Assembly: GCA_964016885.1 (NCBI GenBank)
Contig: OZ024744.1
Coordinates: forward strand, 33,790,001 to 33,854,000
DNA: 64,000 nt
Direction of reading: 5' to 3'
Origin: Eledone cirrhosa
Lineage: Eukaryota
Part shown: positions 6,956 to 27,833 of the stretch, piece after piece
Layout of the letters: each line of letters opens with the position of its first letter
Numbering within the stretch: position 1 is the stretch's first letter
Notes under the pieces: generated by a model
Databases searched by the model: none
What the model was told of the DNA's origin: nothing
The model's input: only the letters and a program-made list of their open reading frames with translations
Made by a program: the position numbers and the translations under genes

Positions 6956-9323
6956 GTCAAACAGTATCGGCCCTTATATTTTCTCTTGGACAACATCATA
7001 TAGTGAATATAATATGTATATGGAGAGTATAGACAGTGTCCTCGGCTCTCCTTCGTTTAGAAGAATAACTGTTTCTTATAAATTATCTTATTCACGACGA
7101 TGCCACTGGTTTCTGACAAAACAAATGTTTTCCAAAAAGAAAAAAAGTTGTCCACTCAGTTCAGATTTGATGGAAAATAGTTCAAGCATTGGCAAAATAA
7201 ATGGCTAAATGGTTAAGTATTCCCTTCATAACCACATAATACTGTGTTCAAGCCCGCCGCGCGGCACCATAAGTATTTTAATAAAACGTTGGGTTCATCA
7301 ATGCTGTATAAGTTGAATTTGGTAGATGGAAAGTAGAAAAACCAATCGCATGCATATTATATATATATATATATATATATATATATATGGGGGGGGGGGT
7401 ATGTGCGTATATATATATATATATATATCCCACACTCAAGCGTGAACCTAATACTAACACTTTGTACTGTACTCTTCGCTATTGTTTTTGTTTTCTGTTT
7501 TAACTATATATATATATATATGTATATATATATATATATATATACACACACACAGATACATACACACAGGATATAAGGCTTACAGATAGATATATAGTTA
7601 AATGCTTAGTTAGTTAGACACACATATATATATAGAGCGAGAGAGAAACTCACACACACACAGAAAAGTAAAGAGACTTTTTCACATAACTGATACTAAC
7701 TACAGACACATTTCCAGATTCCACTTCATTATTTGTCAGGTGTTTCTTAAACTTATGAATTCCTCGGATTGTGAACACGCTTTGTTCGAGATGAGAATTC
7801 AAAGCATTCCCCTCTCCCCACGAAACAACCGTGACAATTAGTAGGCATTGCTTCCGCTTTGCAGCTGGCTGACCGGAAGTTTCAATAAAATGGTGGTCAT
7901 GTTTTTTTTGTGTTTTTTTTCTGTCTAATTATTTATTTACTTATTCAATTTACACGTTTGTGTAAAAGGAACGAAGAGAATGGTGAAAAAAAACTATAGC
8001 AAAACAGCGGCTGGCGTTGCATTTGCTACGCTGTGTGTGAGTGTATGCTTGCGTATTGTTTGTGCAAATGTGTGTTTGTGTTTGTGTGAATGTAAATATA
8101 TGTGTATTCGTATAAATGTATGTATGCTTGTGTGAATGTATATGTACGTGTGTGTTTCTGTAAATATATGTGTTTGTATAAATGTATGTGTGTGTGTGTG
8201 TTTGTGTGAATGTGTGTGTATTTGTGTAAATGTATGTCTGTGAGTGTGTATTTTTGTAAGTGTGTCAGTGTTTGCGCGTTTGTATATATATATAGTCACA
8301 CATATAAATGTATGCATATTCACACACACACAAATATATATATACACACACACATACGTGTCAGCGTGTTGAAAAAAGTCCTAGTATCTAAAAAGTCCCC
8401 TGTTGAGAATCAATGGGGCCTTGCTTGGCTTTACAGTGGCATTGTTCATACTTCCGCTTTTTCTGATACATTTATGATGTGGCTGTCCGAACTGACATAT
8501 CCCTTCCTTTTCTTGTCTGATATATCATCTGATATATCTATATTTTTAAAGAGGTCGGGTGGCAGAAGAAATAAGAGAACGTCCCAGATGATTTTGTTGT
8601 TGTTGTTGTTGTTGTTGTTGTTTTAATGTTCTGTGTGTTCATTGTTTTTATTTTTTTTAAATATTTATTTGTTTGTTTGTTTGTTTCTTTGCTTATTCAT
8701 TTGTTTATTTTTCAGAATGTTTTTTTTTTTAATTTGTTGTTGTTTTGACTTCTAATTTTCACTTCCTGACTGCTTGATTCATTGTCTGCCTGTCTGCCTG
8801 TCTGCCTGATTGTCTGACTGCTTGATTCATTGTCTGCCTGTCTGCCTGTCTGTCTATCTGCCTGTCAGTTTGATTCATTGTCTGTCTGTCTGTCTTTGAC
8901 AGTAGACGTCTTGCACATCGGCTCTTCGATTTGGAATTTTACTTGGATTATTTGTGAGTGTATTATTTAAATTGTTTTTTATTATTGACTCTAACCCCTA
9001 GTCTGGGACTGTAGACGTAGGGTAAATATATTTTCACCCCTTTTGGGGTGAAAAATATTTATTTCAAAATGTTCATCGATATCGTTGAAAACGATATCGT
9101 CGAAAACGAGGAAGCCATATTGGAAGCTAACGCCACCCCTACCAAAAAAAAACGAGAAAGAGGGAACAACAATTCAAACTGTTGAACAGGCCCTCCTCTC
9201 GAATGAAAAAAAAAGAATATTAATTCGAATGAAAACGTAAATTTTGAAAAAAGTAACAAGAAAATAAACACCACAAAACATGAAACCAACAACATTGCAA
9301 CAACAAACAACAAAGACAACAAA

Positions 9324-10845
9324 ATGTCTTTTGCCCAAACGGTCAGGAAAACTATAGAGTACAAGCCAATAGACATCACAAACGCTAAGCAGAACTTGCT
9401 AAATGCCAGAAAATACATATCTTTTGGGGAGGATGGTTCTTTTACGATCAACTCTCCAGAAGAAGTTCGCCAACAGGTATATAGGAATACCATAACCTTC
9501 AGAACGATATCCAACACAACAAGAAAGCCAGCTCAATTGACAGAAAGTCAAATTGAGCTGGTATTGAAAGACATTAAAGAAAACATACTTTTTATTGAAA
9601 GAGGAAAGCTGTATGCCAGCATTATGGTCCGTTTGAAGGACGAAATGCTGGCTCAAAAATGCTCGGTGGCACCTATAGTGTCACCACAATACACCTTCCT
9701 CCCCACGTATAAAGGAAGAAGAACTCAGAGACTAAGAATGTGGAGCCCAACGCCAGAAGTTAACATCTGGTCCGTCCTGACAAGATTTACGGACTTAGAA
9801 AAGGACATCCTTATTTCAGCAGGGGAGTCCACCAGTGGACTGTTCGGGGGGAAAAGTCTGGAGGTTCTCTTACAGATGACACCTGAGAGAATCGCCGGAA
9901 TACCCGACTGAGTCCTACTGGATGGGCGAACATTCATAAATATTACGGTGGAAGGCAGGAGACCCTCATGTTACCAACGCGCTGGCAGAAGTCACCTGAG
10001 GACGGCCTGCCCTCTACTAACAACAAAAAAACCACTGCTACAAACACCACAACAACAACAAAAACAACAAGCACCACCACCACAAAAACAACAAAATACA
10101 CTACCATCACCACCACAACGACAACAAAAGCCAACAACACCACCTCCACCACCACCACCACAACAACAACATCAACAACAGCTCAACAAAACAACCCAAA
10201 ACACGGTCCCACCCTGCCCCTCCTCACAGAACACAAATACAAAAACAGACGCAGTTCATACACAACCCGGAGATATACCCCTCCCCTCCAATATGGAAGA
10301 GGAGCTCATATCGTCGGAAGACGAGGGGGCTCCCTTCCAAAAAGTGAAAAGAAAAAACGTACAGACAACACACAAACAAAAATAACCCCACCTGACAACA
10401 CAACACAGACAACAAAACGCAAACGCACTCAAGAACAACAAGCAAAAACAAACACAACACAAAAACTCTACACATACACAAACAAAAACAATAAAAACCT
10501 AACAGAAAAAATAGAAAACAACCCTTCGGTACAAACCGAAGGGCCGAATTTTGTAACGGCAATGGGACTCCCTAACCTGAAAATGGTGAAAGTCCCACTT
10601 GACATTTTCAAAACTTTGAAAAACATTTACCCTGAGGACGTGGGGCCACCATGCACCAGGCCACTCAACCGCGTCCTCCTGAAAGGTTTTCCCCTCCCCT
10701 CCTCAAACACCCACACAACTCCAAACACCCCAACCCCTCCACACACTAATACCCCCATACCACCACAAACCACCACCCCACCCATCAACCCTCCACCAGC
10801 CCCATGGAAACTGAGCGGCCCGAACCCCGGGACACAGAGAGGTAA
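9324..10845 (+). pseudogene. Tx1 copy 1 ORF1 (gag-like, degenerate zinc knuckle), disrupted
   Basis: ORFs 9324-9911, 9948-10385 and 9968-10933 are collinear with ORF1 of copy 2. Contains CYQRAGRSHLRTACP and ends PMETERPEPRDTER* (TAA 10843-10845). Confidence 0.8.
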
Positions 10846-25906: not shown

Positions 25907-27833
25907 CTATCTATCGATCTATCTATCTGTCTGTCTGTCTATCTATCTATCTCTCTGTATATCTATAAATCTATCTAAACATCCATCCATACATACATAT
26001 ATACATCTCTTTATCTATTTTAGTGAATAAACGAACGTACATATGCACACACTCAGAGCAATGTACACACACATATATATATGTGTGTGTGTGTGTGTGT
26101 GTGTGTGTGTGTGTGCATATTTGTATATATGTATATATGTATTTATGTATGTATATATGTATATATGTATATATGTATGTATATATTTATGTATATATAT
26201 GTGTGTATGTGTGTGTGTGTGCATGTGTGTATGTATGTATGTATTTATGTATGTATATATGTATGTATATATGTATGTATATATTTATGTCAGGTCACCA
26301 GTTGGTGCTACTGGTAACATGTATCCCAGTACAACCTGTCTCATGGTCGGGTCGTTGACGACTAAACTGGCAGCCCCACCAAGGTGAGGAGGGTGACTTT
26401 GGACATCCTGCAGGACTAAAAACAAAACCTGTCAAAGGACAAAGGAGTTCTTAAGAGTCAATGGCCATCCAAAATCACCGAGAGAGATGACCCCTTAGCC
26501 TTTGTCAAGGCAGAATTCTAGGAGAAGGAAAACTCTGATATAACACCTGCAACCATGATGGTATCCAATGATGTTGACTTGTTCTTCTTTTTGGTAAATA
26601 TCATCTTGGTTAAGAGAGTGGGACTGGCTTTGTGCAGTGCCTTTGTTCACTATAAAAGCTTCACGGCACAGGCATTGCTTTATATCTGGAGATCTCTCTG
26701 CACTTGTCGTCACATGGTACCATGGGCCCAGCACTATGTGTCAATAATTGTCACAAGCGTAGTGTTTGTACCAGAGTTTTCAAGTCGCTGGCTGGACTAA
26801 AAAGTCACACTCGTTCAGCGCATCAGTAGGGGTTCTCCTACATGGATATAAAGTAGTGGCCGTACTCGAAAACGAGTTGGCAGCCACCATGTATTTATTT
26901 ATGTATGTATTTATGTGTGTGTGCATGTTTGTATATATGTATGTATATGTATGTATGTATATATGTATATATATATGTATGTATGTATTATGTATGTATG
27001 TATTTGTGTATGTATATATATGTCTATGTATGAATGAATGCATGTATATATACATATGTGTAAGTATATGCCTAAGTCTGTACGTATATATGTACGTATA
27101 TATATATATATATATATATATATATATATATATGATACGTTTACTAGTAACATATATGTGCGTGTACATGTTTGCATGTGTGCATGTGTATAAATAACAT
27201 AGCTTTAAATACTGGTCTTTCCCCCACCGCACCCTCGCAATAAATGACGGGGACAAGAAAGGAAGTATTCACTTAAAACAATATATAATTAGTGATATAT
27301 CTAACTATTTGTCGTCAGAAATAAAATGTATATTTAAAAACAATAAAGGGTGAACACAAAGTCTTACATTTAATGTTTATTTAAAATCCTCATTGAAAGA
27401 TTATTTGCGACATGTGCAGCATGATGTTGTCATGCGCCTTCTCACTGCAGATGTGCCAAACATTTAATTTTAACGTTCCATTTTCATGCAAAATTTACTT
27501 TCAATTTTCCTTTTTCAGTCTTTCTAACTATCTACAGGCGTCGAATTAGCAGAGTCGTTAGAACGTCTAATACAGAATACTCTGTGGTATTCGTTCTGTC
27601 TCTCTACTCTCTGAGTTCAAATCCCGCCGAGGTCGACTTTGCCTTTCATCCTTTCGAGATAAATAAATTAAAAAAAGTACCAGTCTAGTACTGGAGTCAA
27701 TTCTTCCTCTAATATCTCTTTCTTACTTTCTAACCCTTCGCTGGAAGAAATCTGCTGTACTCAGGTCCAGAGATGGGATGGGCAGGAGTTACGGGATCAC
27801 GCCATACCATACCGTCTACATTTCCATATACTT

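Follow-up and report, generated by a model that had tools for sequence, protein, structure and literature searches.

Why do three long interspersed elements (LINEs) lie one behind the other in the same orientation, each with its ends at tetranucleotide repeats? The question is raised by 64,000 nucleotides of Eledone cirrhosa (GenBank assembly GCA_964016885.1, contig OZ024744.1, positions 33,790,001 to 33,854,000, forward strand), hereafter the window, which contains three Tx1-like LINEs that we call E1, E2 and E3. The reading that we prefer, at a probability of about three in four, is that all three inserted in one register within pre-existing ATCT/GTCT repeats, likely through an endonuclease nick at a fixed position and subsequent target-primed reverse transcription (TPRT). 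We consider true specificity of the lineage for RTCT repeats, through nicking or RNA pairing combined, very probable. All results refer to this one 64 kb window, which had been chosen beforehand for its striking look. The elements and the repeats that border them are as follows, with lesions in the second open reading frame (ORF2) counted relative to an intact relative.

8765-8895, +: left part of the complex GTCT/GCCT minisatellite that is the target of E1; ends in (GTCT)4
8896-14465, +: E1, apparently full-length Tx1-like LINE; ORF2 with 4 frameshifts and 1 stop
14466-14906, +: right part of E1's GTCT/GCCT minisatellite; resumes inside a unit
14955-15048, +: (CT)n then (ATCT)8, 5′ flank of E2 and left part of the second target array
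15049-20873, +: E2, apparently full-length Tx1-like LINE; ORF2 with 3 frameshifts and 0 stops
20874-20883, +: repeat spacer between E2 and E3, ATATCTATCT, 9-10 nucleotides; putative shared target-site duplication (TSD)
20884-25906, +: E3, the most decayed Tx1-like LINE; ORF2 with 9 frameshifts and 8 stops
25907-25977, +: (CTAT)n(CTGT)n(CTAT)n array, 3′ flank of E3 and right part of the second target array

Junctions and pre-existing repeats

The 3′ ends were sharp to ~3 nucleotides, while the 5′ ends, which were placed at the point where the repeat gives out, are accurate to a few nucleotides. At the 3′ side the elements close with AATAAACAGAAAT (E1), AATAAAGAAAT (E2) and AATAAGGAAAT (E3), no run of A follows any of them, and the common end can be written AATAA(AC)RGAAAT without poly(A). 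The original prediction had described three Tx1-like LINEs of one orientation that lack poly(A) and end in AATAA..GAAAT, and all of this was borne out, the three lying on the + strand. The first nine nucleotides past the 3′ end, TTGTCTGCC in E1, ATATCTATC in E2 and CTATCTATC in E3, follow N-T-R-T-C-T-R-Y-C in one register. On the 5′ side E1 is preceded by (GTCT)4, E2 by (ATCT)8 with a long (CT)n before it, and E3 by the spacer that follows E2. The earlier placement of copy 2 after (CTAT)n and of copy 3 before (CTAT)n(CTGT)n agrees with (ATCT)8 at E2 and with the array at 25907-25977. All six junctions had been said to touch tetranucleotide repeats; they do, but the E2/E3 spacer is shared, so that the distinct flanks number five. 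The short repeat reported as the sole sequence between copies 2 and 3 was likewise found, with its extent corrected to the 9-10 nucleotides listed above.

One phase of an RTCT lattice gives the best fit for all five distinct flanks, with 8-10 of 10 nucleotides matching, a level reached by 0.55% of window positions; this fit is partly circular, since the 5′ ends were set by the repeat, and just the three 3′ ends are free of circularity. AATAA..GAAAT is matched a fourth time at 38999-39008, where no Tx1 homology precedes it and the repeat does not follow; the end motif alone is thus not diagnostic.

Over both strands of the window, 12 of the 13 RYCT runs of at least three units lie in the arrays adjoining the elements. 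Among 308 perfect di-, tri- and tetranucleotide runs of at least four units, the AGAT and ACAG classes have one member each, the former abutting the 5′ end of E2 and the latter that of E1; no run of the AG/CT class (34, including the (CT)n beside E2) or of the AAG/TTC class (3) is interrupted. The likeness of the flanks was compared with a null that is independent of any motif, namely three random sites sharing as much of a 9-nucleotide flank as was observed. This null gave P=0.0016-0.0022 for the element-free window, P=0.0057-0.008 within the 794-bp repeat patch and P=0.019-0.026 for the + strand of this patch alone, values that are modest, mutually non-independent and obtained on a pre-selected window. 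The two independent 20-nucleotide target sites match at 13 of 20 positions (P=0.007). An Rfam scan of the window returned 0 matches, so no RNA gene serves as the target.

The same figures bear on the idea that non-specific LINEs accumulated in a tolerant local hotspot and primed by chance on short repeat matches, which we hold to be quite improbable. The three elements do lie in one patch of ~800 bp, a span of at most 600 bp having P ~0.0005 under uniform insertion, and other elements and repeats abound in the window; however, ~300 other microsatellite runs were left unhit, strand and register agree even within the patch (P=0.006), and 48 bp of unique DNA together with the long (CT)n inside the patch were skipped.

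That the RTCT repeats pre-date the insertions, as target and not as tail, is supported by E1, because this element interrupts one minisatellite unit and leaves an excess of TSD size. The minisatellite anchor flanks E1 on either side and is otherwise absent from the window, in agreement with the proposal that the first copy splits a TCTG/CCTG minisatellite. Ten of the 11 units that are complete and uninterrupted have lengths divisible by 4 bp, and the unit interrupted by E1 sums to 66 bp; taking away 10, 14 or 18 bp leaves 56, 52 or 48 bp, the last of which is the length of the two units preceding the interrupted one. The excess is what an insertion with a TSD of 2 modulo 4 bp would leave. At the second array, the 10 nucleotides between E2 and E3 match the 5′ flank of E2 at 9/10 and the 3′ flank of E3 at 8/10, as expected if the second insertion reused a site recreated by the first. 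E2 is preceded by (ATCT)8 without any element-like end farther upstream, and this repeat returns 3′ of E3.

The reverse order of events, in which tails encoded by the elements gave rise to the arrays, a route put forward for snake ATAG/AATAG repeats and CR1-L3 LINEs, is very improbable at this locus. In its favour, LINEs are described as seeding ATAG-type repeats (PMC8303610), the 3′ ends of all three elements pass directly into RTCT, and almost every RYCT run of the window is found here. On the other hand, E1 and E2 also have repeats on their 5′ side, and these are not immediately preceded by any 3′ end resembling that of the elements: 14466-15048 contains none, and ahead of the left array there is a single AATAA, ~200 bp away at 8568. 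Moreover, the two flanks of E1 are halves of one complex minisatellite unit, and the flanks differ by element (GTCT/GCCT versus ATCT). An element-encoded tail, which the original prediction had itself named as the counter-case, leaves the 5′ flanks of E1 and of E2 unexplained.

The description as three copies of one family had to be given up. Amino-acid identity of ORF2 is 77% for E1/E2, 62% for E1/E3 and 59% for E2/E3, and the elements are three subfamilies of one Tx1-like lineage. Over 1059-1094 codons the ORF2 pairs have a synonymous divergence (dS) of 0.63-1.3 and a ratio of nonsynonymous to synonymous divergence (dN/dS) of 0.23-0.27, with third codon positions most changed; E1-E3 therefore diverged as active elements before their insertion here, which excludes local duplication and makes any shared site preference a property of the lineage. 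The adjacency and common orientation of E1-E3 might suggest local tandem duplication of one insertion with its flank, but this is hardly conceivable: divergence under purifying selection contradicts it outright, the decay is unequal (ORF2 lesions numbering 5, 3 and 17), and duplication of the flanks does not exceed 10-18 bp.

Proposed mechanism and points against it

In the mechanism that we propose, the bottom strand, which contains AGAY, would be nicked just before YTRTCT of the top strand, to within ~3 nucleotides, an uncertainty that arises because the last bases of the element resemble the repeat. As in TPRT generally, the end freed at the nick would prime reverse transcription, and a top-strand cut 10, 14 or 18 bp downstream would give a duplication of 2 modulo 4. 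This duplication could recreate the target and allow a later subfamily to insert beside an earlier one, as at E2/E3, where E3 is probably older than E2, being more decayed. The AATAA(A/G) signal ends 5-7 nucleotides before the element end. Cleavage usually occurs 10-30 nucleotides past an AATAA-type signal. Since the signal sits so near the element end, transcripts are predicted to be cleaved within the downstream repeat, and the repeat-derived RNA end may pair with the nicked strand; such pairing would account for both the lack of poly(A) and the precision of the register. RNA-target annealing has been proposed for SART1Bm and R1Bm (PMC7265360).

If such pairing were the main source of specificity, the endonuclease could be loose, and only nicks in RTCT repeats would pair with read-through RNA and prime. 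The lack of poly(A) at 3 of 3 junctions and a signal 5-7 nucleotides from the end would suit this alternative, and so would the two sites of E1 and of E2/E3, which share the downstream, primer-side flank only, the bases upstream of E1's probable nick being different. However, a TSD-like excess of 2 modulo 4 in all three elements suggests a second cut in register, the endonuclease loop is conserved, and the Tx1L endonuclease is sequence-specific by itself (PMC1950540). We regard pairing as the main source of specificity as unlikely.

For the preferred reading, with its nick at a fixed position, the endonuclease hairpin loop is of interest, as it has been tied to target selection in L1, Tx1L and R1Bm (PMC1950540). 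In E1-E3 and in all 4 readable relatives at ≥60% identity this loop is alike and 9 residues long. A loop ending in G-x-SR[SW]YLD occurs in 9 of the 159 readable loops, and many relatives at 35-49% identity have other loops, often of 11 residues. A shared target would fit this similarity but is not demonstrated by it.

A number of observations weigh against the preferred reading. The base directly after GAAAT differs in all three elements, and the signal of E3, AATAAG, is non-canonical. The TSD copies are imperfect (15/18 or 8/10 in E1, 9/10 in E2 and 8/10 in E3) and ambiguous in length, 10, 14 and 18 bp all being possible. Three of the nine loops with the G-x-SR[SW]YLD ending belong to matches at ~45% identity, and flexibility of the loop has been argued to matter more than its sequence (PMC1950540). 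The null confined to the patch reaches just P=0.006-0.026, and once landing in the repeat is granted, three ends sharing a register is a 1 in 16 chance. Moreover, the independent target arrays are two only, ~600 bp apart in the empty site, so that locus effects are inseparable from sequence effects. Target specificity is here read from the sequence. With these points set beside the evidence, the earlier claim of sequence specificity for the repeats keeps its support from the anatomy of the elements, the pre-existing target, the register and the TSD-sized spacer, as a local result from three insertions in two arrays.

A wider picture can be sketched tentatively, and we think it doubtful as a whole. 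A Tx1 lineage of octopods, old and with no dependence on the vertebrate elements Kibi and Koshi, might have kept a degenerate GATA/GACA specificity in three or more subfamilies through a self-reinforcing cycle, in which insertion in the repeat, a read-through RNA end and a conserved short endonuclease loop would lead to in-register landing and to tandem arrays of unrelated subfamilies.

Element anatomy and other features of the window

The internal features of the elements, including hairpins predicted in the 5′ untranslated region (UTR), are listed below.

8985-9065, +: predicted twin hairpin in the E1 5′ UTR, directly before the ATG of ORF1; z=-4.8, segment picked by eye
9069-10845, +: E1 ORF1, broken; a degenerate CCHC knuckle is followed by a low-complexity T/Q/N/P-rich tail; approximate end
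10869-14282, +: E1 ORF2; APE endonuclease, reverse transcriptase (RT, with YADD) and C-terminal CCHC zinc finger; endonuclease unbroken over 10869-11600
15168-15245, +: predicted twin hairpin in the E2 5′ UTR, homologous to the E1 hairpin; z=-5.9
15288-17189, +: E2 ORF1; CCHC knuckle intact, frameshifted later
17223-20657, +: E2 ORF2; endonuclease, RT and zinc finger
22287-25647, +: E3 ORF2 remnant

The 5′ UTRs of E1 and E2 are homologous. Each of their twin hairpins, which are missing from E3, beats all 200 shuffles, and the arms differ in sequence between the two elements with pairing kept (by eye); they are possibly a promoter or translation signal. Folds of the 3′ UTRs were better than shuffles in 1 of 3 elements (z -0.3, -2.25 and -0.13), and no conserved 3′ structure is claimed. 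Compared with E1, E3 has a 55-bp deletion in ORF2, and it is without the first part of ORF1. Its first ~150 nucleotides weakly resemble the 5′ UTR of E2 (P=0.002) and not that of E1 (P=0.19), so a full-length 5′ end with an internal deletion is likely and no more than that.

In all three elements, ORF1 has a single CCHC-type knuckle together with a tail of low complexity. Tx1-clade ORF1 proteins typically have RNA-binding domains and a CCHC knuckle, ZCCHC3-like. Atlas matches of ORF1 at 0.88-0.91 include zf-CCHC and RBD_ZCCHC3 clusters, which we take as a lead only, the Pfam zf-CCHC match being weak (E=0.09); no homologue of ORF1 was found among 662 candidates, and its single-sequence structure model is poor (predicted local distance difference test, pLDDT, 36.5). 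At the N-terminus of ORF2 an APE-type endonuclease matches PF03372 above the cut-off in E1 and E2, its best PDB matches being L1 endonuclease variants; the catalytic motifs are present in the elements, altered in E3. RVT_1 was matched in E1 and E2, and zf-RVT in E1-E3, above the cut-off in E2 only; YADD is present in 3/3 elements and the C-terminal CCHC finger is intact in 2/3. A search of the window for further Tx1 fragments returned just short, low-identity tblastx pieces, which were not counted.

Several other features were recorded in the window. An unbroken 1002-codon frame at 41865-44873 (+) is Penelope-like, with RT and GIY-YIG (Atlas 0.96-0.98 with HTH_animal and GIY-YIG clusters, weak RVT_1); segments flanking it on the 5′ and 3′ sides recur elsewhere in the window at 88-93%, so this element may be young, and just upstream of the frame, at 41506-41719, lies a 214-bp near-perfect palindrome (96%). 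A broken Penelope-like fragment at 38275-39844 (-) has RT-like and GIY-YIG-like pieces by eye, with no Pfam support. At 46149-50793 there is a tandem array of a 93-bp unit in ~50 copies (94% match), whose long open frames repeat YYGHVVRM, which we take to recall the C-terminal motif of RTE-type LINE proteins; the array is possibly a satellite born from a LINE fragment. There are also a 199-bp inverted repeat of 99% identity (61171-61369 and 62499-62697), a 205-bp tandem repeat of 2.8 copies (61352-61911) related to 56345-56541, and a 48-bp minisatellite of ~7.7 copies (31224-31595).

Relatives and comparison with known systems

The best protein matches of the RT region of E2 were an NCBI record (68%) and Argonauta hians proteins (61-65%); two JGI records matched parts of the query at 63% and 77%, and proteins of the cuttlefish Acanthosepion pharaonis matched at 47% and 41%. 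Among longer proteins there were 33 matches at 40-46%, and named fish and coral proteins followed at 32-34%, one of them called 'Transposon TX1 uncharacterized 149 kDa protein'. An RT tree was built with FastTree from 130 of 134 rows (P0122, P0123, P0167 and P0233 were left out as too short) over 320 columns, with a midpoint root and with neither reference Tx1 families nor an L1 outgroup among the rows. In this tree E1-E3 stand together (0.999), joined by P0121 and an Argonauta protein (0.993), and this group is sister to a 38-member group with a cuttlefish protein, the joint 43-member group having a support of 1.0. Judged from these relatives, the host is probably an octopod. The label Tx1-like draws on the architecture of the elements and on the names of neighbouring proteins. 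When bacterial and archaeal genomes were scanned for stray copies and their flanks, 63 candidates yielded 2 loci, which are 27-28% identical and were judged to be chance.

A search of the open literature, made without Repbase and Dfam, found no GATA/GACA-targeting Tx1 element and no target-specific cephalopod Tx1 element described. Repbase contains further target-specific Tx1 families described nowhere else, and the lineage of E1-E3 may therefore already be deposited there; the published target lists of known Tx1 families (figure and supplements of PMC4494074) may also include a similar repeat. E1-E3 probably fall in the octopus annotation class L1-Tx1, given as 80 families and 56.3 Mb in O. 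vulgaris in PMC13282606; in that source, the word 'target' is absent from the main text, and 'target', 'GATA' and 'TCTA' are absent from the supplement. RTCT repeats (the GATA/GACA class) are probably a new target for Tx1-type LINEs, here in a cephalopod. Tx1 elements are abundant in cephalopods, yet the literature consulted on them gives no target. The unbroken endonuclease region of E1 makes the specificity directly assayable, the loops, which differ between the E1-E3 group and the groups that are its sisters, form a natural series for asking how the targets of APE endonucleases change, and the finding is relevant to the use of GATA/GACA microsatellite markers in these animals.

The trait of microsatellite-specific Tx1 elements, insertion into a pre-existing microsatellite at fixed register and orientation, was found in 3/3 elements of the window. 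The teleost Tx1-clade elements Kibi ((TC)n) and Koshi ((TTC)n) (PMC4494074 and PMC3812793) are, like E1-E3, two-ORF APE-type non-LTR (long terminal repeat) elements inserted in a pyrimidine-rich microsatellite in one orientation. Unlike them, E1-E3 target (ATCT)n/(GTCT)n, and the TC and TTC runs of the window are uninterrupted. Crocodilian Tx1 families of the Tx1-1_Crp group are inserted in (TTCC)n/(TTTC)n according to PMC4494074, which also describes tandem SINEU-3 insertions sandwiching one TSD and takes as criterion of specificity a target in >20% of the flanks of a family's genomic copies. The crocodilian group resembles E1-E3 in a tetranucleotide-repeat preference across several subfamilies of one Tx1 lineage; it differs in that the repeat unit of E1-E3 contains a purine, the host belongs to another phylum, and the crocodilian specificity was scored on many copies, here on three. 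Membership of E1-E3 in the Kibi, Koshi or crocodilian TTCC-TTTC lineage was rejected on the target, the flanks being ATCT/GTCT/GCCT. The tail-seeding class of LINEs (CR1-L3 or RTE type, with the repeat only 3′) was rejected on the repeats present on both sides and the minisatellite unit split by E1.

Waldo and Mino belong to the R1 clade. Both are repeat-targeting elements (ACAY for Waldo and AC for Mino) according to PMC3812793, where the mechanism of microsatellite targeting is called 'not well understood'. Waldo is like E1-E3 an APE-type element with a degenerate tetranucleotide target, and differs by its insect hosts and its other repeat. R1Bm and SART1Bm provide the model of a target-like RNA end that sets the exact junction, as predicted for E1-E3; SART1Bm, unlike E1-E3, retains a poly(A) tail at its junctions, and annealing in E1-E3 is a prediction. 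Taken with these systems, the finding extends a known strategy of microsatellite targeting and is not a new kind of system.

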